Of a stretch of 20,000 nt of DNA, positions 5,362 through 20,000 are shown in pieces. Position numbers and translations under genes: made by a program. The stretch's first letter is position 1; every line of letters starts with the position of its first letter. Location of the stretch: the IMG/VR virus record IMGVR_UViG_3300009502_000043, one strand, 5' to 3'. The DNA comes from an uncultured virus (IMG/VR IMGVR_UViG_3300009502_000043) (Duplodnaviria; Heunggongvirae; Uroviricota; Caudoviricetes). Below the pieces are notes generated by a model. It saw only the letters and a list, made by a program, of their open reading frames with translations. It did not search any database and was not told the origin of the DNA.

Positions 5362-6158
5362 TGTCTGAAATTATTGATGCGAAAATAATAACACCGAAAC
5401 CAGTTGTATCTTGGTGGAAAAGTGGTGACCCATGCTTGTATATATCTAAATGGAGAAATAAATTGACAGAAATAAATGTTATCGAAACAAAACATTTATC
5501 TGATGAATTTATTCAAATTTGTATTGAAGAAAAACATTCCATATTTCTCCATGTAAATATTACAGGTATGGGTAAAACTATTTTTGAACCAAAAATTCCA
5601 ACCGTAAAGGAAACGTTTTTCCAAATAAAAAAATTAATTGATTTAGGATTTCCACAAAAACAAATACTTGTTTGTGTTGATCCAATATTACCAAATGATA
5701 ATGGATTGAATGCTCTTAAACTTTTACTCAAAGTATTTACAGAATATAGAGTATTAAGATTAAGAAATGTTAGATTTAATGTTCTCCATTATAAAGAAAT
5801 CGAAAGTACATCAAATAAAAAATATACAATTGCAAATCAGAACATAACTTCCAGACAATCAACAAAAGGAATTATGCAATATTTAACATCTTCACCAACT
5901 TTTTTTAAAGATTATTATAAATTGATTGATCAGTATAAAACAATTATTTCTGTTGATCATTCAATTGAAGCAAAAGTTGGAATACGTGAACTTATTGTAT
6001 TTGGTTATAAAAATGAATGGATTAATACTGATGGAAGTCGAGAAAAAATTATCGAATATGAAAAAGGTAATAAATTCAAACCTTTATTAAATGTTATATC
6101 TGATAAAAATCCAATTCGTTGTCAAAATCGATGTTTGCTTTGTGCACATAAATATTGA
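5361..6158 (+). CDS. DUF1848-like protein with C-terminal CxxxCxxC (radical-SAM-like Fe-S motif)
   Basis: HVNITGMGKTIFEPKIP...QILVCVDPIL and terminal CQNRCLLC match the remembered DUF1848 pattern (T.TgY...lEP.vP...WRyDPI...CxxxCxYC). Confidence 0.6.
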   Translation: MSEIIDAKIITPKPVVSWWKSGDPCLYISKWRNKLTEINVIETKHLSDEFIQICIEEKHSIFLHVNITGMGKTIFEPKIPTVKETFFQIKKLIDLGFPQKQILVCVDPILPNDNGLNALKLLLKVFTEYRVLRLRNVRFNVLHYKEIESTSNKKYTIANQNITSRQSTKGIMQYLTSSPTFFKDYYKLIDQYKTIISVDHSIEAKVGIRELIVFGYKNEWINTDGSREKIIEYEKGNKFKPLLNVISDKNPIRCQNRCLLCAHKY

Positions 6159-7706: not shown

Positions 7707-7713
7707 CTAATAA

Positions 7714-8520
7714 TGATTTGAATAAAAATCAGATCAAACAATATTTAAAACATTCCGCCAATGTAGGCACCGAAATGACGGTTATATGCCATCTCCGTCA
7801 TAGCCTTCCGGAATCCGCCGGGAAATTTGGATAAAGAAGTTTGGATTAAATTCCGATATGTAACTTCATCCTACTCCCATCATGAAGTGTTTGAAAAAAG
7901 TAGAATATCAAACACAAAACGATATGGTTCTGCTCATAATATGAATGAAGATCATATTCGCCTCGCTAAGGTACCCAGGAAGTATTTGAATAATCGAATA
8001 TTACTGTAAAGTGCAAAAAAATGTTGGAATGATTCTTATGTGCACGTATTGCTTGAATTTCAACAGTAAACCAATTAGATTTTTCGGTTATATTCCGCCA
8101 GTAGAATATCGGTTAGTCGTGAATTGCTTCCGATATATCTTATATCGCGGTCAAAGATTGTCCGGTCAAGATTCGCGTATTCGCTTACAGTACCGACCGA
8201 TCAAGTTTCGGAAATCATTTGGTTGAAAATTTTGAGTATCTTTAATATTTGAAAGTCTTACGACAGTAGAATATGCTCAAAATTTTTTATTTGGTAATTT
8301 ATTAAAAGTTAGTGTGACGTTTGTTAAGTAATTTCGAGTTGCCGAATATTTTTGATTTAGTCAAGAATTTCGTTCAAACAAACATTAGTTTTTGATTCTT
8401 TATAGGTGAGAGTCGAAAATGTGGACTGGTTCCGAGCCTCTCAGGAAAAAATCGGAAAATAATAAAATGTTTTCTGTTTCCATGGAAAAGAATACCAGCA
8501 ATCAAGAAATTTCTTTTCCA
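7714..8520 (+). ncRNA. candidate large structured non-coding RNA(s) of unknown family
   Basis: GC-enriched ~800 nt with no credible ORF, tiled by stems (e.g. 7775-7801, 7863-7888, 7887-7915, 8106-8136, 8226-8286, 8306-8391) that contain G-U pairs in the + orientation. Lies between tmRNA and tRNA. Boundaries are uncertain. Confidence 0.6.
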
Positions 8521-8524
8521 AAAC

Positions 8525-8597
8525 TGTCTTGTGGTGTAATTGGCAACACGTCTGGTTTTGGTCCAGAAGAGTTCAGGTTCGAGACCTGATGAGACAA
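8525..8597 (+). tRNA. tRNA-Gln (anticodon TTG)
   Basis: Cloverleaf: acceptor TGTCTTG/TGAGACA, D-arm GTGT-AATTGGCA-ACAC, anticodon arm TCTGG-TTTTGGT-CCAGA (TTG at 8558-8560), T-arm TCAGG-TTCGAGA-CCTGA. No encoded CCA. Confidence 0.95.
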
Positions 8598-8666
8598 CGA
8601 TTTTAGTGAATATAAGGTTAAAGGTTTAAAGGTTTAGTGATTATTTGGCTCATAAGAGCTTTGATT

Positions 8667-8749: not shown

Positions 8750-8776
8750 GTAACAAATCACTAAAATCATATATAA

Positions 8777-11974: not shown

Positions 11975-12126
11975 AAACAAACTTTAAACAAATAAAATTT
12001 CGCAATTATAGTGCTGGAACTTATTTAATTTTTTTACTATCAATATTGTTTGGTTATTATTTAATAGTCAAATTTCAGATCAATGTTTCAGAAGTAGTTG
12101 AAAAGTTTTTTGACGCATTTAATTAG
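11971..12126 (+). CDS. small membrane protein (51 aa), not in ORF track
   Basis: ATGA overlap with the upstream stop. MKTNFKQIKFRNYSAGTYLIFLLSILFGYYLIVKFQINVSEVVEKFFDAFN fills the gap up to the next promoter. Confidence 0.6.
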   Translation: MKTNFKQIKFRNYSAGTYLIFLLSILFGYYLIVKFQINVSEVVEKFFDAFN

Positions 12127-12132
12127 TTTACC

Positions 12133-12165
12133 CATATTATTATATTTCCAAGGATATATGTATTA
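12133..12165 (+). promoter_or_regulatory. putative phage promoter, copy 5
   Basis: CATATT-N13-GGATATATGTATTA. Confidence 0.65.
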
Positions 12166-12203
12166 TAATCATTGTTTAAACATTATACCTTAAAATATTT
12201 GAT

Positions 12204-12863
12204 ATGAGAAACAGAGTTATTTCGGTTGATGAAATGAATCAACATGTATTTAGTTTTAAATTATTAATTGAAACTTTATGCAAAGATGCTTCGAAAGGAT
12301 TTCAATCTGTAAAGGAAAAATCATTAGCATCTTACTTTGAAACTGCGAAAGTTAATCTTAATTATCGTGGACCTTTGATGGATTTTCTTAAAACTCAAAA
12401 TTTTTTGATCACACAAAACGAAAAAGTTAATTTACGATATAAATTCGTTGAACCTGATGTTAAAATTGATTCAGAAGTAATAGCAAAACGTGCTTGGAAT
12501 ATAATTTATCAAACAGTCAATCCAAGAGTACAAAGACAAAAAACAGTTAAACTTCATAAAGAAGAAGAGTTCAAAGGAATTACTGAACAAGCAATTGCTA
12601 AAAATTATTACTTATCTGATGAAGTTTTCTTTTTGTATGAATCTGAAATTGCTTCAGGTCAGATTTTTGGAATGAGTTTTGCTTCAAATGGAGTTGAAAT
12701 TAATACAGAAATAATGACATTTCAAATTGCAATTCCATCTATTGTTAAAGTTGATGAAATCAAAACAGTCTGGAAAAATCAAATTTTTCCTTCTCCAGAA
12801 TTACTTCTTAAATCACTTGAAGTAAAATTTTACAAATCAAATCAATCAAAATTATTAAAATGA
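12204..12863 (+). CDS. hypothetical protein (219 aa)
   Basis: ORF after the promoter motif. Confidence 0.82.
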   Translation: MRNRVISVDEMNQHVFSFKLLIETLCKDASKGFQSVKEKSLASYFETAKVNLNYRGPLMDFLKTQNFLITQNEKVNLRYKFVEPDVKIDSEVIAKRAWNIIYQTVNPRVQRQKTVKLHKEEEFKGITEQAIAKNYYLSDEVFFLYESEIASGQIFGMSFASNGVEINTEIMTFQIAIPSIVKVDEIKTVWKNQIFPSPELLLKSLEVKFYKSNQSKLLK

Positions 12864-13276
12864 AAGTACCTTTTGATGATATTATCGATATTTTCAAGAA
12901 AAAATATTCATCTGAACAATCTGATATTGATCTTTTTTATTTGGGTTGGAATGAATGTGTTCTTGGTTGGAAACCTACAATAATTGATAAATCATATTCA
13001 CGATTCTCCGATATAGTAAATATAAATGAATTTCATTTTTTCTTATTTGGTTGGAATTGTTGTGAAGCTTTTTTCTACAATGTTAATGATATGTGGCAAC
13101 TTTTCGAAAGAAATGATAAAATTTATAATCATCATATTATTGAAGAAATAATGAAAACCTTTATGGAAAGAATTATTCGAGATAAAATAAAACTCAGTTC
13201 TGAAATGAAAAATCTTATTTCAGTTTTCAATAAAATTTCTGATGCTGTTATATCTTCTAAAAAACCTAAAACCTAA
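12860..13276 (+). CDS. hypothetical protein with duplicated FxxGWNxC motif
   Basis: ATGA overlap. Contains FYLGWNEC and FLFGWNCC. Confidence 0.78.
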   Translation: MKVPFDDIIDIFKKKYSSEQSDIDLFYLGWNECVLGWKPTIIDKSYSRFSDIVNINEFHFFLFGWNCCEAFFYNVNDMWQLFERNDKIYNHHIIEEIMKTFMERIIRDKIKLSSEMKNLISVFNKISDAVISSKKPKT

Positions 13277-13281
13277 GAATA

Positions 13282-13791
13282 ATGAATGTAGCTAATCAAT
13301 TAAAAAAGATTGAACTTGCATCAGCAATTAATGATATTGTTGAAACGTTCCTTCCAAGATTTACAAAAGATAAAGTTCTTATTGTAAATATTCGTTTTCA
13401 TATTGATAATTTCAAAACCAATGAAACAGTAAACAGAAATCTTTCAATTTTATATTACAGACCACAAAATTATATGTTTGTTGGTACTTATTTGGAAAAC
13501 AAAGATTTAACAATAATTGGTAATTTGAAAACAATGTTTTTTCCAAACAAAGTTCAACAAGAATTGGCAAAACATTCTTATCATGATAGTTGTTGGAGAT
13601 CTGGAACTGAAACTATAATAAATAAGGTTGCTCAATCTATTTACGATAAGTTAAAAGATGCTGATGATGAATATCATGTTTACACAGCATTTGCAATAAA
13701 TCCATTTGAAATTGTTTCAGCAAAAATCGATATTCGTGAGAAAACTGCCACTTATATTCCAATTGAAGTTGAAATACCTTTGAAAAAATAA
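13282..13791 (+). CDS. hypothetical protein (169 aa)
   Basis: ORF ending just before a terminator. Confidence 0.8.
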   Translation: MNVANQLKKIELASAINDIVETFLPRFTKDKVLIVNIRFHIDNFKTNETVNRNLSILYYRPQNYMFVGTYLENKDLTIIGNLKTMFFPNKVQQELAKHSYHDSCWRSGTETIINKVAQSIYDKLKDADDEYHVYTAFAINPFEIVSAKIDIREKTATYIPIEVEIPLKK

Positions 13792-13811
13792 AAGTATTCA
13801 CATTTATATCG

Positions 13812-13844
13812 AAAGTCAATCAGATAACTTCTGATTGACTTTTT
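13812..13844 (+). terminator. intrinsic terminator
   Basis: AAAGTCAATCAGA-taact-TCTGATTGACTTT plus TT. Confidence 0.8.
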
Positions 13845-13861
13845 ATTTTAATCTGATAACT

Positions 13862-13894
13862 CATATTGTCATAAAATATAGGATATATAAATTA
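13862..13894 (+). promoter_or_regulatory. putative phage promoter, copy 6
   Basis: CATATT-gtcataaaatata-GGATATATAAATTA. Confidence 0.75.
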
Positions 13895-13921
13895 TATCAA
13901 AATCCTAAAAATTACAATATA

Positions 13922-14257
13922 ATGAAAAATAAAAAATTCGAAACTGAAAGATTAAAATGGATTGCAGATAATCCAGGATTTGAAGAAAATGAATTGAGAG
14001 CTTTTTTTGCTGGTTATGATGCAGCAAGTAAAACAACAATTGCATATTCTGATCAATATGAAGAAAAAGATCGTATTTTTCCAAAACATAAATTAGTTGA
14101 ACATTGTGTGTTTGACGTAAATGATCAGGAAGAAGCTGAATTGTATTGTTGTATTGCTGAAGTTGCTGAAAAAAATAATGTGCAACAAAATGATCTTGGA
14201 CATTTATTTCCAGCAATATTGCGAATGTTAAAATCAACAATTAATTGGTCAAAATAA
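13922..14257 (+). CDS. hypothetical protein (111 aa)
   Basis: ATG at 13922 lies downstream of the promoter motif. The track start at 13835 falls inside the terminator. Confidence 0.78.
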   Translation: MKNKKFETERLKWIADNPGFEENELRAFFAGYDAASKTTIAYSDQYEEKDRIFPKHKLVEHCVFDVNDQEEAELYCCIAEVAEKNNVQQNDLGHLFPAILRMLKSTINWSK

Positions 14258-14259
14258 CT

Positions 14260-14445
14260 ATGACAACAAATGTAGATAAACTCAAAGAATTAGGCATATT
14301 GAAAGATTTGCTTGAAAATCACACCGAAGCATCATTAAATAAAATGGATGCTGAAGAATTACTTTGTGCTTGGCTTGATTGGGAAGGTATTATTGGTTAT
14401 GGACATAGAATTGTCAATATATTCAAAACATTATCAACAAAATAA
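14260..14445 (+). CDS. small hypothetical phage protein (WLDWEGIIGY motif)
   Basis: ATG 2 nt after the upstream stop. Confidence 0.75.
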   Translation: MTTNVDKLKELGILKDLLENHTEASLNKMDAEELLCAWLDWEGIIGYGHRIVNIFKTLSTK

Positions 14446-14447
14446 TC

Positions 14448-14753
14448 ATGGACGTAAAAACATTAAAAGAAGCGAATTTGCTTCAATCTAGAATTGAAAA
14501 ATTAGATTTGTGTAACAATTTATTCTATTGGGGTACAGATTCTAATTTTCCTGAAATACCAACAGTTTCTCGTAAACCAAAATTAATTTTGGAATATGAT
14601 GATGAAGAAGATGGTAGAAGTCAAGAACCTGTTCCTATGGAGCTCAATGAAGAAATGATTCAAGTGTTAAAAACTTGGATTGAAATTGAATCTGATCGTC
14701 TTATGACTGAATTTGAACAACTAAAACCTGAAGAAAATGATAATGTCTTTTGA
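14448..14753 (+). CDS. hypothetical acidic protein (101 aa)
   Basis: ORF in a tight operon. Confidence 0.78.
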   Translation: MDVKTLKEANLLQSRIEKLDLCNNLFYWGTDSNFPEIPTVSRKPKLILEYDDEEDGRSQEPVPMELNEEMIQVLKTWIEIESDRLMTEFEQLKPEENDNVF

Positions 14754-15372
14754 AGGTATTGATGTAGATTTGGAGATTTCTTTGTTTGAATACAAAGTTA
14801 TTGCTTCAAAAGAACTTCATGAAGATGGAAGTGGAACACATTTTTGCATTTACAAAATTACAGATGATGCATTTGGTTGTGGACATATTTCCGACAGAGA
14901 TTTGGATGAATTAATTGTAGGTGAAAGTTGGATGAATGAATCCGATATTAAATCTTTCCTTGAATCTAATGGTTGTACTAAAGATGAATTTCTTACATTT
15001 CCATTTATTCAAAAATTACATGCACTTTTAAATAAATATGGATATTTGAATATTTTCGGTCAAGATTATGATCCAATGTCAAAAGGGTATGTTATTCAAA
15101 ATTATTTGACACCTGAAAAGAAAACTTATTATTACAATACTGGTGTGAAAAAATCTTCATTTAATTCAACATTTTTAGGTGACAAATTTATTAATGATGA
15201 ATTGCATATTTCATTTGATTGTGAAGAAGTTCCAGAAGGTGCAAAATTAGATTTTCTTGCATCAAAAGATACTATTTATCTTGGACAATTAAAATACATT
15301 GTTCGTGAAATTTATAATACCAGACTTGTAGTTAAATATGCGTATTTTAAACCTGCAATTCATGAGAAATAA
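14743..15372 (+). CDS. hypothetical protein (~209 aa)
   Basis: Long ORF, start at 14737 or 14743. Confidence 0.8.
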   Translation: MSFEGIDVDLEISLFEYKVIASKELHEDGSGTHFCIYKITDDAFGCGHISDRDLDELIVGESWMNESDIKSFLESNGCTKDEFLTFPFIQKLHALLNKYGYLNIFGQDYDPMSKGYVIQNYLTPEKKTYYYNTGVKKSSFNSTFLGDKFINDELHISFDCEEVPEGAKLDFLASKDTIYLGQLKYIVREIYNTRLVVKYAYFKPAIHEK

Positions 15373-15571
15373 AATTTATTATTTCTTTTTCAAAAAAGGA
15401 AAGCAATACTCTTTGACATTGCCATATATAACTTATTGGGGTTGTGATGAATATCATTGGTTGAGATTTCATTCAAAATCCTGGATTAGTATGCTTGGTA
15501 ATAGAGTTAACGGAAATACTATGTTTACAATACTTTACGATAGTGGTAAAATATCAGTAAATAAAAATTAA
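15362..15571 (+). CDS. hypothetical protein (69 aa)
   Basis: ATG at 15362 overlaps the upstream stop, and the ORF ends before a terminator. Confidence 0.6.
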   Translation: MRNKIYYFFFKKGKQYSLTLPYITYWGCDEYHWLRFHSKSWISMLGNRVNGNTMFTILYDSGKISVNKN

Positions 15572-15588
15572 GGTGGATTAGGTTTGTT

Positions 15589-15625
15589 AAAGCCTGGGTT
15601 GAATTTATTTCAGCCTGGGTTTTTT
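15589..15625 (+). terminator. intrinsic terminator
   Basis: AAGCCTGGGTTGAA/TTCAGCCTGGGTTT stem with G-U pairs plus a T-tract. Confidence 0.75.
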
Positions 15626-15644
15626 CATTATTAATATGATGCCT

Positions 15645-15677
15645 CATATTGTCATAAAATTTTGGATATATAAATTA
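15645..15677 (+). promoter_or_regulatory. putative phage promoter, copy 7
   Basis: CATATT-gtcataaaatttt-GGATATATAAATTA. Confidence 0.75.
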
Positions 15678-15705
15678 ATAATAATAACCTTAAAATTATA
15701 TCCAT

Positions 15706-16116
15706 ATGTCATTTAAAATTTTAAACAAAGAAGGTCAAGCAATTATAATTAATATGCTTGACAAAGAAGCTGCTGAATTTTGGAATCAAAAAGTAGGTGA
15801 TGATTATGCTGTTCCACTTCCAATGTCACATTTTGGTGAAGGAAGAGAAGCACTTGTTGATTTCATAAAACAATCAAATTGGTTTGATATGATTGGATAT
15901 AATATTTCTCAACAACCAATAAAATACACAAGTGGTTGGGACAATGTTAAATGCAATATGTTCTCAGTTCATGCTTGTTCAATAATTCTTCAAAAAACTA
16001 AAGAAGAAAAAATTGGATATTTCGAATATATTATTGAAACACATTTGAAACCATATTTCGATTTAATCGATTTCTGGGCTTCTAAAGAATATACACCTGT
16101 ACAAATAACTGATTAA
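15706..16116 (+). CDS. hypothetical protein (136 aa)
   Basis: ORF after the promoter motif. Confidence 0.82.
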   Translation: MSFKILNKEGQAIIINMLDKEAAEFWNQKVGDDYAVPLPMSHFGEGREALVDFIKQSNWFDMIGYNISQQPIKYTSGWDNVKCNMFSVHACSIILQKTKEEKIGYFEYIIETHLKPYFDLIDFWASKEYTPVQITD

Positions 16117-16118
16117 TT

Positions 16119-16337
16119 ATGAAAAAAATTATTAAATGCACGATTGGACCATATCCCAAACAAATTTTTGATAAAATGCCTGAAGTCAATGTGGAATTTG
16201 ATGATGGCAGTAAAAGAATGATATTTGATTTTTATCCTGATGAACTTTCCTTTTCAGAGTCTGAATTTATTGGACTTACCGAAGAAGAAGCGATCACATT
16301 GAAATTCAAAAAAGATAAGGAATATTTGCAATCTTAA
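16119..16337 (+). CDS. conserved hypothetical phage protein (FYPDELSF...EFIGLT motif)
   Basis: Motif recalled from many phage hypothetical proteins. Function unknown. Confidence 0.8.
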   Translation: MKKIIKCTIGPYPKQIFDKMPEVNVEFDDGSKRMIFDFYPDELSFSESEFIGLTEEEAITLKFKKDKEYLQS

Positions 16338-16347
16338 ATTCACAACA

Positions 16348-16602
16348 ATGGCAAAGAAAAAACAACCTGTAGCTGAAATTCTTTGTTGGGTATTTTTTGT
16401 ATCAAAATTTAACCTGACAAATATGCAAATGACCTTAGCATTGAATTTATGCAAGATATTTGAAAGTCTTGGTTCATTAAATACAACTCCAACACTTGAA
16501 GAAATCAAAATAACTCCAGAATTTCGTGAAGCTTATCAACATTTGAATAAAGCTTCATTATCAGATGAGAATATTCAAAGAATAATTGATTTTAAATCAT
16601 AA
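16348..16602 (+). CDS. hypothetical protein (84 aa)
   Basis: ORF in operon. Confidence 0.62.
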   Translation: MAKKKQPVAEILCWVFFVSKFNLTNMQMTLALNLCKIFESLGSLNTTPTLEEIKITPEFREAYQHLNKASLSDENIQRIIDFKS

Positions 16603-16609
16603 TAAACTC

Positions 16610-16861
16610 ATGGAAATAGATTTTGTAATTAAATCGGATTATGGAAATTTTTTCGAAAGACTTACGAAAGAATTTTTCAAGAAAGTTGAAAATCCCCGTA
16701 TATCTAAAGTTATTGTAAGTGCTGGACCATATCGAACTTATGATTTGGATATTAAACGATTGAATGATACAACAATAATGATCGATTATTATTCAGCAAT
16801 AAGAGTATTTGAACACACTTATAAAGAACAAGATGTTATTGATTTTTTAAACAAAATCTAA
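16610..16861 (+). CDS. hypothetical protein (83 aa)
   Basis: ATG at 16610 after the upstream stop. Confidence 0.72.
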   Translation: MEIDFVIKSDYGNFFERLTKEFFKKVENPRISKVIVSAGPYRTYDLDIKRLNDTTIMIDYYSAIRVFEHTYKEQDVIDFLNKI

Positions 16862-16877
16862 TTTTTGTAACACATAT

Positions 16878-16913
16878 GAAAAACCAATCAGATAGCTTTT
16901 GATTGGTTTTTTC
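16878..16913 (+). terminator. intrinsic terminator
   Basis: GAAAAACCAATCAGA-tagct-TTTGATTGGTTTTTTC. Confidence 0.8.
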
Positions 16914-16931
16914 ATTTGTATTAAGACAACT

Positions 16932-16964
16932 CATATTGTCATAAAATACTGGATATATATATTA
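16932..16964 (+). promoter_or_regulatory. putative phage promoter, copy 8
   Basis: CATATT-gtcataaaatact-GGATATATATATTA. Confidence 0.75.
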
Positions 16965-16991
16965 TAATTGAAACCTTTAAAATTATATTAT

Positions 16992-17450
16992 ATGACACAA
17001 TTAATTACTGTATTTAATCAAGACACATTAGACATAGTTCGTGGTGTTTTAAAAATTAAACTTGATGAAATTTTCAAAGAAACTGGAGTAAAATTTAACA
17101 TTGGTGGTATGAGATTTGATAGAAACGAATTTACATGCAAATTAACTGCACTTACAGTTAATCCTGATAGTAAATTCGCAAATATCTCAGTAATGGACAT
17201 CAAAGTTGCCAAGGATTTTTGTGAAAAGGCATATTTGCTTGGATTAAATCCACAAGAATTGAACACATCAAAAATGTTAAATGGCGAAAAATATACTCTG
17301 ATCGGTTATCTTACGAAAAGCAAAAGATATCCACTTCTGATGAGAAAAGGTTCTAAACGTATGAAAATAACTGTTGACTTCTGGAAAAAAGGTACTGTAC
17401 CACCACCAGTTAAACCTGCAGAAAGTCTTGATGCTTTTTTAGGATTTTAA
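16992..17450 (+). CDS. hypothetical phage protein (152 aa)
   Basis: ATG at 16992. Pro-rich linker followed by the C-terminal tail SLDAFLGF. Confidence 0.8.
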   Translation: MTQLITVFNQDTLDIVRGVLKIKLDEIFKETGVKFNIGGMRFDRNEFTCKLTALTVNPDSKFANISVMDIKVAKDFCEKAYLLGLNPQELNTSKMLNGEKYTLIGYLTKSKRYPLLMRKGSKRMKITVDFWKKGTVPPPVKPAESLDAFLGF

Positions 17451-17462
17451 ATCACATAAATC

Positions 17463-17705
17463 ATGGAAAGACCTTTATATGAAATTGCGAAAGATATTCG
17501 CGAGAATTGGAAAAATATTGATCCTTTTGCAAAAGAATATGTTGATGCTTTAGCAAAAATGAAAACAATCAATGAAAAATATGGTTGTGAAGATGCTGAT
17601 ACAATTGTAATTCGTTTTCTTTGCAATGTACAAACATGGCGAGGTGAACATGCAAGAAGAATCAAACTTGAATTGAATACAATGTTAAAAAATATGAAAA
17701 AATGA
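17463..17705 (+). CDS. conserved hypothetical phage protein (RPLYEIA...WRGEHARRIK)
   Basis: Pattern recalled from a widespread small phage protein family. Function unknown. Confidence 0.82.
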   Translation: MERPLYEIAKDIRENWKNIDPFAKEYVDALAKMKTINEKYGCEDADTIVIRFLCNVQTWRGEHARRIKLELNTMLKNMKK

Positions 17706-17812
17706 ATAACAGACAATTGTTTAAAAAAATTATTGTTGCAATTATTCTATTGATCGCATTTTATTTGATATATAGAGAAGATAAAAATAAAGATAAAGAA
17801 GATTCAGATTAA
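17702..17812 (+). CDS. small single-TM membrane peptide (36 aa), not in ORF track
   Basis: ATGA overlap. MNNRQLFKKIIVAIILLIAFYLIYREDKNKDKEDSD, with the stop inside the terminator hairpin. Confidence 0.55.
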   Translation: MNNRQLFKKIIVAIILLIAFYLIYREDKNKDKEDSD

Positions 17813-17829
17813 TTCTGAGTTCTCTTTTC
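17796..17829 (+). terminator. intrinsic terminator
   Basis: AGAAGATTCAGA-ttaat-TCTGAGTTCTCTTTT (imperfect stem). Confidence 0.6.
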
Positions 17830-17847
17830 ATTTATATTAAGTTAACT

Positions 17848-17880
17848 CATATTGTCACAAAAAACTGGATATATAAATTA
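17848..17880 (+). promoter_or_regulatory. putative phage promoter, copy 9
   Basis: CATATT-gtcacaaaaaact-GGATATATAAATTA. Confidence 0.75.
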
Positions 17881-17906
17881 TAAATAATTACTAAAAATCA
17901 CTACTT

Positions 17907-18434
17907 ATGAAACTTATTACGTTAGAACCAAATTTCGCAAAGTTAACAGATCAACAAAAATTCGATATTCTTTTCGAATTGTATCTGATTAACAATCCTG
18001 TTGATATTATTACTACAATTGTTGATCAAGATTTCGACATTTATGTAGACATGGTTGAATCAGAATTAGAATCAAAAATTAAACCAAAAAATTATGCAAT
18101 ATCACCTTTTGCCTGGGTTGCTATTCAAGTTATTATTGTTGATTTTGGCGGATGGTGTTATATTGATGTTTTTGATGCAATGGATTCACTGACATCTGAA
18201 GATGAAATGGAAGCATTATTTCCAGATGCACCTCATGTAAGAGATGTTGATTGTGGCATTGATTTTATGCCTTGGACAATGCCAAATGCTCGCAAATATG
18301 CTGCCGATAAAATTGCCGCAAAATTTCTGATGCCATTTCTTCAGAATGAAAAAATCAAACAGTATTTGGTTGAAGAACACAGTTTATTGCCTGAACTTGT
18401 TCCGTTGGATATTACTGGTTGGTTTGAAGATTAA
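17907..18434 (+). CDS. hypothetical acidic protein (175 aa)
   Basis: ORF after the promoter motif. Last + strand gene. Confidence 0.82.
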   Translation: MKLITLEPNFAKLTDQQKFDILFELYLINNPVDIITTIVDQDFDIYVDMVESELESKIKPKNYAISPFAWVAIQVIIVDFGGWCYIDVFDAMDSLTSEDEMEALFPDAPHVRDVDCGIDFMPWTMPNARKYAADKIAAKFLMPFLQNEKIKQYLVEEHSLLPELVPLDITGWFED

Positions 18435-18448
18435 GTTCAACAATATAT

Positions 18449-18492
18449 TGAAAAAAATATCCAAATCTTGATTGATTTGGATATTTTTTTCA
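18449..18492 (+). terminator. intrinsic terminator for + strand block (likely bidirectional)
   Basis: TGAAAAAAATATCCAAATC...GATTTGGATATTTTTTTCA perfect 19-bp inverted repeat. Confidence 0.8.
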
Positions 18493-18506
18493 CTTTTTCA
18501 ATTCCA

Positions 18507-18596
18507 CGCACCGGGAAAAGTCTCTAAAAGTGATTTTTTTGAATTTTGAGTACACCTGTCTTCACTTCTCTCAAATTTTGAGTATTTCCCGGTGCG
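18507..18596. repeat. GC-rich 12-bp inverted repeat element at the strand-switch point
   Basis: CGCACCGGGAAA (18507-18518) / TTTCCCGGTGCG (18585-18596), with internal direct repeat AATTTTGAGTA (18542, 18574). Confidence 0.8.
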
Positions 18597-18605
18597 CCAA
18601 ATTGA

Positions 18606-18659
18606 AATTTGCAAAAAATAATCCGAATCAATTAAAATTCGGATATTTTTTTGCAAATT
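18606..18659 (-). terminator. intrinsic terminator for - strand block
   Basis: AATTTGCAAAAAATAATCCGAAT...ATTCGGATATTTTTTTGCAAATT. Confidence 0.75.
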
Positions 18660-18667
18660 CCTTTTGA

Positions 18668-19204
18668 TTAAAATCCGTTGAATGCTCCAGGATTAACTTT
18701 TGGAACAATAACTTCATCTTCAACTTTCACAGCTTTCATGTAATTGTATGAACCAAGTCCTCTTTGACCTGAATCAGTTATTACAAATTTGTATGTACCA
18801 TCAAGTGGAACATCATAAATTGTTGGAAATCTTTCAGTTCCTCTCCACAAATTTCTCAATAAACATCTGGAAGTCATATTGTTTCCTTCACCTTGATGAT
18901 TCCAGATATATTCATCATAAGCTTGCCAATTGTTAGTTATTTTCAAATTTGTGATTTGACCCATAACTTCATTAGTCATAATATCAACTGTTGAATGATG
19001 ATAAAATTTAACATCATTTTTCAACATAAAATTCAATACTTCCAATTCGCGCTTAATGTTTTCTTTTTTCAATTTTGCAGCAATACGATTTTCTTTATCA
19101 TATTCACGTTGCAATTTAGCATATTCGCGATCAGATTTTCTCTGTTCAATTTCTTCCTTTGAATATTTGATTCTCATCAAAGGCTTTCCGTTTTTTCCAT
19201 TCAT
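18668..19204 (-). CDS. hypothetical protein (178 aa)
   Basis: ATG ORF preceded by the repeat hairpin. N-terminal coiled-coil-like region. Confidence 0.82.
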   Translation of the reverse strand: MNGKNGKPLMRIKYSKEEIEQRKSDREYAKLQREYDKENRIAAKLKKENIKRELEVLNFMLKNDVKFYHHSTVDIMTNEVMGQITNLKITNNWQAYDEYIWNHQGEGNNMTSRCLLRNLWRGTERFPTIYDVPLDGTYKFVITDSGQRGLGSYNYMKAVKVEDEVIVPKVNPGAFNGF

Positions 19205-19217
19205 AATATTAAAGTTA

Positions 19218-19265
19218 TTAGTGATTTCTACCTACTTAAGCTCGAATGTTTCCATCCGAGCTTAA
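19218..19265 (-). repeat. 48-bp intergenic repeat copy A with 13-bp GAAA-tetraloop hairpin
   Basis: Minus strand: TTAAGCTCGGATG-GAAA-CATTCGAGCTTAA-GTAGGTAGAAATCACTAA. Confidence 0.85.
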
Positions 19266-19276
19266 ATTGATTGTAG

Positions 19277-19627
19277 TTATTCCGATAATTTGGCAAAATC
19301 CAAATAACTATCAAAATTTGGTAAAATTTTATTCAAAGCGTAACGATCAACAATCAATTCCATACCTCTTTCCAAAACTGTTCGAAAGTCTTTTGGAAGT
19401 TGTTCAACACCATTATCGCTAAAAACTGAAGGTAATCCAACTAATCTGCAAATTCTAATCAATTCATCTTGAGCATCAAGAATTTTATCACCACTCATGA
19501 ACTTTTCAGCTTTTTGATAATTCATAATAAACTCAGCTAATAAAGACATATTGCGTCTAATTACGGCAATTTCTACTCTTTGCATATGTTCAAAAAGTTC
19601 TTCTGAAGTTTCTGCTTTTGCTTCCAT
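19277..19627 (-). CDS. hypothetical protein (116 aa)
   Basis: ATG ORF lying between the two repeat copies. Confidence 0.8.
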   Translation of the reverse strand: MEAKAETSEELFEHMQRVEIAVIRRNMSLLAEFIMNYQKAEKFMSGDKILDAQDELIRICRLVGLPSVFSDNGVEQLPKDFRTVLERGMELIVDRYALNKILPNFDSYLDFAKLSE

Positions 19628-19639
19628 AATATTTTTATT

Positions 19640-19687
19640 TTAGTGATTTCTACCTATTTAAGCCCGAATGTCTCCATTCGGACTTAA
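19640..19687 (-). repeat. 48-bp intergenic repeat copy B with 13-bp GAGA-tetraloop hairpin
   Basis: Minus strand: TTAAGTCCGAATG-GAGA-CATTCGGGCTTAA-ATAGGTAGAAATCACTAA, 42/48 identical to copy A. Confidence 0.85.
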
Positions 19688-19706
19688 TTTATCATATTTT
19701 TGCTTA

Positions 19707-20000
19707 TTAAAAGTGCATTGAAATTGAATATGTATAGTCTTGATTCCCAGGCACTTGTATACCTACTTTATGCTCTTCTGCGAGTTTAATTAACTCAGGT
19801 TTAACAAAATAACAGGTAAAAGACTGATAAAAATAGAAAACAACCCTATTGTTATATTTGTCTTGATCAATCCAAATTCCATGGATTCCATACTCAACAC
19901 TTGCACTGCAAAAGTCTTCCAATATCAATTTGATAAATGGAAATTGCTCAGCCAACTCTTTGTAAACTAATTCGTTGACTCTTTGATTGCCCTTTTCAGG
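19707..20000 (-). CDS. hypothetical protein, 5'-truncated by window edge
   Basis: Frame stays open from 19955 to 20000 (PEKGNQRVNELVYKELAEQFPF...). Confidence 0.72.
   Translation of the reverse strand, partial: PEKGNQRVNELVYKELAEQFPFIKLILEDFCSASVEYGIHGIWIDQDKYNNRVVFYFYQSFTCYFVKPELIKLAEEHKVGIQVPGNQDYTYSISMHF

Follow-up and report, generated by a model that had tools for sequence, protein, structure and literature searches.

A short hairpin module that recurs between small minus-strand genes of an uncultured phage is a real, conserved and uncatalogued intergenic RNA element, known so far from two phages. The module consists of (i) a 9–11-bp stem closed by a G-C pair, (ii) a spacer of exactly 7 nt, (iii) an invariant GGU, and (iv) an A-rich leader. 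On balance, its sequence features point to an intercistronic mRNA signal that would direct both cutting and protection.

The window (the whole 20,000-nt stretch of DNA that was analysed) is AT-rich, with a GC content of 27.6%, and comes from a phage that is present in freshwater metagenomes of two studies. It encodes the end of an NAD ligase, a DinG-type helicase, a tmRNA, a tRNA-Gln and many small ORFans. By its helicase, the nearest named phages (26–32% identity) are PAU, PTm1/PTm5, pT24, MA9V-2 and Lak. We infer a Bacteroidota host, because of the hosts of these phages and because the leaders lack a Shine-Dalgarno sequence. Three minus-strand genes and the two copies of the module occupy the end of the window, as follows:

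18668–19204, minus strand: 178-aa ORF, downstream of copy 1, from an uncharacterised family (42 other relatives, 37–66% identity)
19205–19229, minus strand: A-rich leader of copy 1 (GGT to ATG, 25 nt)
19230–19239, minus strand: copy 1 7-nt spacer (19239–19233) and invariant GGT (19232–19230)
19236–19265, minus strand: copy 1 hairpin, 13 bp with GAAA loop; conserved core is a 9-bp stem (19240–19261) closed by G-C
19273–19276, minus strand: possible lower-stem partner of copy 1, predicted to pair with 19231–19228; T7-like internal loop
19277–19627, minus strand: 116-aa ORFan between the copies; found only itself among proteins of 63–203 aa
19628–19651, minus strand: A-rich leader of copy 2 (GGT to ATG, 24 nt)
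19652–19661, minus strand: copy 2 7-nt spacer (19661–19655) and invariant GGT (19654–19652)
19658–19687, minus strand: copy 2 hairpin, 13 bp with GAGA loop; core stem 19662–19683
19707–20000, minus strand: ORF truncated at its 5' end, upstream of copy 2; no family assigned and no relative in a search of longer proteins

Recomputation of the repeat reported in the preliminary description gave the same result: the two copies (19218–19265 and 19640–19687) are identical at 42 of 48 positions. They lie 422 nt apart, and a search of the 20,000-nt window for a third copy found none. The further structural claims also held. On the minus strand each copy forms a 13-bp stem, with the loop changing from GAAA to GAGA within the GNRA pattern, and the four stem differences, which fall in three pairs (C-G/T-G, T-A/C-G and G-T/A-T), leave pairing intact in every case. 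On the plus strand there is one C-A mismatch per copy, and folding is weaker (–12.5 and –11.9 versus –18.0 and –17.9 kcal/mol). From the upstream stop to the hairpin there are 11 and 19 nt, and from the hairpin to the ATG 31 and 30 nt, as described; both downstream starts read AATATTATG. Each gap folds far more stably than its shuffled versions (z = –6.75 and –5.4). Two reported absences were likewise confirmed: both gaps lack the CATATT/GGATA promoter, and neither hairpin is followed by the U-tract of a normal terminator (3 U in 8 nt in both copies). Of the tail that had been called conserved, the GGU and the A-richness are kept, while the 18-nt tail as a whole is not; part of it (AAATCACTAA) recurs in a promoter-driven leader at window position 8755.

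The four pair-preserving changes between the two copies are weak evidence of selection (simulated p of 0.02–0.03 if two-thirds of changes are transitions, and 0.08–0.15 if all are); the strong evidence comes from a related phage. Five relatives were found through core proteins and read whole, of which G009 is the complete one: its genome of 208.5 kb has 52.9% GC and carries the window's core genes in the same order at 31–54% identity. On its minus strand, an array of ~20 small accessory genes, nearly all without a Pfam family, runs from 207.6 kb to 5.7 kb (spanning the record ends). One phage-type promoter lies upstream, at 5702, and a search inside the array found no further promoter match. 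Two of the array genes are HTH_73 paralogues.

The hairpin module is present in nine of nine G009 array gaps of 55–86 nt; the remaining four junctions overlap or abut (2 nt). Six of the nine came from a hairpin survey that was blind to GGT, two from reading the gaps, and one from the rule itself. A spacer of 6 occurs at one more G009 site, and GTT or GAG replaces GGT in two nearby gaps. The spacer was also scanned at lengths of 4 to 11 across 614 kb (the window plus the five relatives), requiring at least 7 pairs, –10 kcal/mol or lower, and 8 A in 16 nt. Thirteen sites were obtained at 7 nt (two in the window, nine in the G009 array and two elsewhere in G009). Other lengths gave none at 4, 5, 9 or 11, one at 10, three at 6 and one at 8, and the four sites at 6 or 8 are other registers of 7-nt sites. 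Distances from GGT to ATG range from 11 to 25 nt, and the GGT is therefore tied to the stem, rather than being a Shine-Dalgarno sequence.

The stems of 12 modules contain, on the sense strand, 15 G-U pairs and no A-C pair. This bias, together with GNRA loops in 7 of 12 modules, indicates at the level of sequence that the signal acts as RNA. Among nine modules of equal length every cell pairs, with two-sided changes in eight of nine pairs (0 of 500 shuffles), although these counts are partly circular because the copies had been selected for forming hairpins. Loop sequences differ (GAAA, GAGA, GCAA, GUGA, UUAA, UCUC, UUCAAC and AUU), those outside the GNRA pattern being unrelated; the parts that are kept are the stem base, the 7-nt spacing and the GGU. 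The two window copies share 34 of 39 bases, as do the G009 modules at 2730 and 2151, while most G009 pairs share only 15–29 of 39. Five U in 8 nt are found in only three of the nine array modules. The earlier suggestion of a repeated RNA element is supported, and the nine-copy array places it in a larger family, which so far extends to two phages.

The genes that the modules separate are not shared. The window's three minus-strand proteins have matches in none of the five relatives, and the module is kept while its cargo differs between the window and G009. The 178-aa protein gave no Pfam or PHROG match and no PDB fold match (Foldseek), its predicted model being confident (pLDDT 88.6); Atlas searches with the 178-aa and 116-aa ORFs returned no usable match. 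Invariant HH, VPLD and DxGxRGxG-like positions characterise the 178-aa family, a homologue (40%) of which occurs in an unrelated viral contig. No module lies upstream of the homologous gene in G004.

Searches beyond G009 returned no further copy of the module. Rfam covariance models gave no match at the element with E up to 5, and a word search of the open-access literature gave no description of a stem, 7 nt and GGU. The module was not found in G001, G002, G003 and G008 (closer to the window by core proteins, 25–69% complete), even under a relaxed rule, or in six named phage genomes. With an RNA model, R1, the hits in PAU, pT24 and MA9V-2 were all ordinary U-tract terminators or folds unlike the module, and PTm1, Lak-A1 and LR756500 gave none. 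In G002 the model detected one terminator behind tRNA-Gln, then GGT at 7 nt; in five Bacteroidota genomes, with 150 candidates scored per genome, most hits were terminators, and one of these had 7 nt and GGT. Viral contigs contained no stretch with the exact tail, named phages gave no blastn match, and of the nine stretches found by a module-consensus scan, three are G009 and six lack the module. Candidates from a DNA scan were set aside: 28 metagenome stretches without a hairpin that look like chance matches, four viral stretches that are one single-copy hairpin of an unrelated phage, and one stretch that is an ordinary terminator in a Mu-like phage. Contigs from four lake runs, compared with window positions 12000–20000, contained no joint that skips the middle gene, no variant of the element and no contig that fits two places; these contigs show presence only, 36 loose ends were left out, and copies that differ as much as the G009 modules do would escape, so the comparison says little about excision or further copies.

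The hairpin by itself resembles bacterial terminators. A pattern search of GTDB yielded 83 stretches, of which 80 were examined together with one viral locus. Among these 81 matches, 68 show pairing at no fewer than 10 of 11 positions, and 63 of the 68 are followed by a U-tract (at least 5 U in the next 8 nt), against 3 U in each window copy. The matching hairpins stand behind unrelated genes in many phyla; two Bacteroidota matches are mosaics of both window hairpins, and loci in Algibacter and Bacteroidales carry terminators nearly identical to the window hairpin. The window hairpin is a common bacterial terminator-type hairpin minus its U-tract. Intrinsic terminators of the form RATG-GARA-CATY, found in many phyla including Bacteroidota, share this near-identical hairpin, but in the module the U-tract is replaced (3 of 8 U) and a GGU stands at a fixed distance. 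GG occupies that place in only 2 of the 68 bacterial control hairpins, and the fixed-distance GGU is lacking in the other 66. Like an intrinsic terminator, the module has a GC-rich hairpin just 3' of a stop codon; its U content, 3 of 8 in both window copies and 2–5 in G009 modules, compares with the at least 4–5 U in 8 nt of terminators (the threshold of 4 being taken from a section of preprint 10.1101/2025.11.10.687660). That section also states, as a general point, that GC-rich hairpins without U often mark processed, protected 3' ends. REP-type 3' protection offers a similar likeness, its stabiliser hairpins also being U-less.

Two further sets of U-less hairpins were noted. Firstly, Oscillospiraceae loci L067 and L087 carry, at ~1500, the same hairpin in a form without the U-tract, 19 nt ahead of the following ATG, which suggests a host-side analogue of an intercistronic stabiliser. 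Secondly, U-less hairpins of unrelated sequence lie at G001 86694, G002 10818 (record coordinates) and G003 66746, in each case 19–29 nt before the same 418–425-aa gene; here the position is kept and the sequence is not. The G009 homologue of this gene has a weak DNA polymerase B match, and the gene is probably a split DNA polymerase subunit.

By analogy, the module most likely works in the manner of the processing and stabilising hairpins of the T7 early region. Transcription from the one upstream phage promoter would give a long polycistronic message of accessory genes, in which a GC-rich hairpin would fold in each gap, right behind the stop codon. A putative endonuclease would then cut, presumably within the 7-nt spacer or at the GGU, leaving a hairpin that would protect the 3' end of the upstream message and a downstream message that would keep a short A-rich leader like that of primary transcripts. 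As a side effect, the repeats would provide homology for gene gain, loss and duplication. The processing or stabilisation proposed in the preliminary description is favoured by geometry, conservation, strand and placement; these are directly seen, as are the module in every gap and the lack of internal promoters, whereas we infer the cutting itself, its position and the enzyme responsible.

The enzyme could, tentatively, be host RNase III, acting much as in the T7 early region. Part of a review (PMC3867540) describes five signals of the T7 polycistronic precursor as targets of E. coli RNase III. The likeness to these T7 sites extends to intergenic hairpins of ~9–12 bp, often with GNRA loops and an outer G-C followed by A-U pairs, which lie some tens of bases ahead of the ATG, among small genes lined up behind upstream promoters. 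At the fourth position, three T7 hairpins share a C-U mismatch with two G009 modules, and the site before gene 1 reads C, 7 nt and GGTA, like the module; this match, at one of five T7 sites, may be chance. The rules for proximal and distal boxes set out in the relevant section of PMC1540722 give a divided picture. The modules agree with the proximal box (G-C, A-U/U-A, A-U, A-U/U-A): position 1 is G-C in 12 of 12, position 2 A-U in 10 of 12 and position 3 A-U in 9 of 12, and both window copies read G-C, A-U, A-U, U-A. They depart from the distal box of the E. coli enzyme (U-A/U-G, five and six pairs inward): at its position 2, 9 of 12 modules, both window copies among them, carry G-U or A-U, the mirror image of the U-G or C-G found in five of five T7 sites. 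Such changes are given in the same section as lowering E. coli RNase III reactivity 50-fold and more than 30-fold, while the review says, in the part concerned, that the distal box is not conserved across species (PMC3867540).

The remaining comparisons with RNase III sites are similarly mixed. RNase III sites call for a helix of no fewer than 11 bp above the cut together with a lower stem or extension; helix lengths are 13–15 bp in the window and 10–13 bp in G009. Lower stems are predicted for some copies only, reaching significance in 3 of 14 modules at p <0.01 (overall Wilcoxon p 0.27) and, under a stricter test, in 2 of 14 at p <0.05. The module at G009 5221 has a perfect 10-bp lower stem, another two modules form no more than a single pair below the stem and are mismatched at the second proximal-box position, and of the window copies only copy 1 has a predicted lower stem, not significant under the stricter control. 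Lower stems are therefore not general. In addition, the GGU is invariant in the modules and present at one of five T7 sites, and the phage is unrelated to T7 with a host that is probably of the Bacteroidota. The module was not filed as an RNase III site because one E. coli-defined membership feature fails. The AAG/CUU flanks are also typical of terminators.

The invariant GGU is not explained by RNase III and would be by a G-directed nuclease. Such a nuclease, either host RNase Y or an unrecognised phage enzyme, is a possible if somewhat doubtful agent of cutting and protection. RNase Y is present in three of three Bacteroidota genomes tested and in no phage tested; it cuts preferentially after G, as reported in part of PMC7101322, and for the B. 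subtilis enzyme the portion of PMC11780869 concerned describes a weak motif and a helpful hairpin that lies downstream, not upstream. No RNase, NusG-like, CsrA-like or integrase family was recognised among 188 of 199 listed G009 ORFs (the list covers ORFs of 55–600 aa that lie within single sequence segments), and a direct search gave none either.

A leaky intrinsic terminator, or a hairpin-plus-pause attenuator in which the U-tract has been partly replaced, is a doubtful but serious alternative; it would impose stepwise polarity along the array or act as a checkpoint for a phage antiterminator. A stem followed by 7 nt is terminator geometry, so both the spacing and the common hairpin type (near-identical in Algibacter and Bacteroidales) fit. 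If the first G of GGT is taken as +1, G stands at –10 in 11 and a pyrimidine at –1 in 8 of 13 sites, in keeping with the pause consensus G-10 Y-1 G+1 (given in part of PMC6062546), which B. fragilis RNAP also obeys (by an excerpt of PMC11213015). However, this consensus leaves the invariant second G and T unexplained, and in the window each copy carries A at –1, with just 3 U in 8 nt. PeSL stem-loops did terminate in a reporter (from sections of PMC2839356 and PMC4122927), yet ordinary U-tract terminators exist in the same window, and no NusG-like family was found among the 188 G009 ORFs. Nine modules stand serially behind one G009 promoter; the cut-and-protect signal is favoured because nine efficient terminators in such a series would silence the array and because only three of the nine have 5 U in 8 nt.

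A new RNA processing code is an unlikely alternative. Here a sequence-specific nuclease or RNA-binding protein—either a phage protein outside the known families or a factor of a Bacteroidota host—would measure 7 nt from the hairpin base and read the GGU, converting the polycistronic accessory array to single-gene messages. If so, a foreign gene arriving behind a module would be expressed at once, and modules would be the insertion points of an open-ended cassette array.

It is distinctly less probable that the module is a translational element without cutting, in which the hairpin would insulate the upstream stop and, together with GGU, bind a host or phage protein controlling initiation at the following gene, as a ribosome standby site or operator. 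The module occurs only where genes do not abut, its A-rich tail is common to promoter-driven leaders (window 8755, and TAAGAAA after G009 promoters), and the G009 array encodes two HTH_73 proteins; however, the 11–25 nt between GGT and ATG are not a fixed distance, the loops are variable, and the searches turned up no known RNA-binding family. The related idea of boxB-like antitermination, raised in the preliminary description, is unlikely. In boxB/nut sites, a conserved GNRA-like loop is read by an N-type protein; in the modules only 7 of 12 loops are GNRA, and loops vary while stem base, 7-nt spacing and GGU are kept. Three other candidates were dropped: a CsrA site (the GGA is half paired), group II intron domain V (no bulge), and an N4-type template hairpin promoter (pairing favours the sense strand).

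That the module is primarily a DNA recombination site delimiting single-gene cassettes, whether attC-like or PeSL-like, is very unlikely. The repeats do flank an ORFan, the window cargo genes are without match in the relatives, and adjacent modules can be the most alike (34 of 39 bases in the window pair and in G009 2730/2151). As in integrons, moreover, imperfect palindromes lie between single genes. The integron logic of the preliminary description is nevertheless not supported. The cores of attC sites are RYYYAAC and GTTRRRY, and neither was found on either strand in any of 12 modules. Tyrosine recombinase PF00589 was found in none of the five relatives, including the complete, module-bearing G009, and in none of the 26 window ORFs. 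Finally, the sense-strand G-U bias is pairing of the RNA type, and most G009 modules share only 15–29 of 39 bases.

The closer comparison is with the PeSL cassettes of the T4-like phages RB49, phi1, nt-1 and KVP40, which are covered in sections of PMC2839356 and PMC4122927; G009 itself is a distant T4-like phage by its portal protein (PF07230). PeSLs are also repeated intergenic stem-loop modules that run from stop to ATG among ORFans and are likely shuffling substrates, recombining over short homology (part of PMC2839356). They include a sigma-70 promoter and a Shine-Dalgarno sequence, by the same sections of both papers, and the modules have neither: the only sigma-70-like candidate is a 9/12 match that overlaps the leader, from a scan with 58 hits versus 43.6 expected, and at the 3' end the leader is A/U only, with GGT 11–25 nt from the ATG. 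Local duplication is visible in the 34/39 pairs and the HTH_73 paralogues, and the repeats therefore probably assist shuffling; this would probably occur by ordinary homologous recombination between copies, as a by-product and not the function.

Better PeSL analogues are the plus-strand terminator-plus-promoter repeats of the window at 13811, 15592, 16879 and 17795. A promoter-like phage motif has nine plus-strand sites in the window and is present in all five relatives:

867, 4694, 6216, 8717, 12133, 13862, 15645, 16932 and 17848, plus strand: YATAWT-N12-14-GGAWA motif

Several of these sites directly follow a U-tract terminator, forming PeSL-like cassettes of terminator and promoter.

It is scarcely credible that the module is a second class of promoter or a neutral relic left by a single duplication: the sequence past GGT resembles the leaders behind phage promoters and the two-copy null reaches only p 0.02–0.15, but no phage promoter match, no convincing sigma-70 site and no –7 motif of Bacteroidota promoters lies upstream on the minus strand, and a relic is excluded because the module is conserved across phages of 28% and 53% GC.

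Other features of the window deserve mention. A phage tmRNA (7297–7707) has an unusually long tag of 26 residues, and tRNA-Gln(TTG) lies at 8525–8598; a long-tag tmRNA also occurs in G003, and tRNA-Gln(TTG) was called in four of five relatives. The interval of ~800 nt between the two (7710–8520) has no convincing ORF and no Rfam match, and may hold further RNA genes. At 18500–18604, where two gene arms converge, an inverted pair of CGYACCRG motifs (18507, plus strand; 18596, minus strand) lies 82 nt apart, flanked by two terminator-like hairpins. Pairs spaced by 82–87 nt occur 5–8 times within one 3–5-kb region in each of the five relatives, often with a CAAG...CTTG palindrome in the centre, and are kept across phages from 23% to 53% GC. 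The pair is a candidate replication origin or protein-binding unit, and is possibly of more interest than the hairpin-GGU module.

The maturation of mRNA in Bacteroidota and their giant phages is poorly described. Should the module turn out to be a T7-like RNase III site or a leaky terminator, it would be a convergent or divergent case of known phage biology, and of modest interest. As a short, strictly spaced motif common to two phages of very different base composition, it is a ready reporter substrate, with which one could ask whether RNase III, RNase Y, a phage enzyme or a polymerase event acts at the module. It could also serve as a compact part for multi-gene expression in Bacteroidota hosts.
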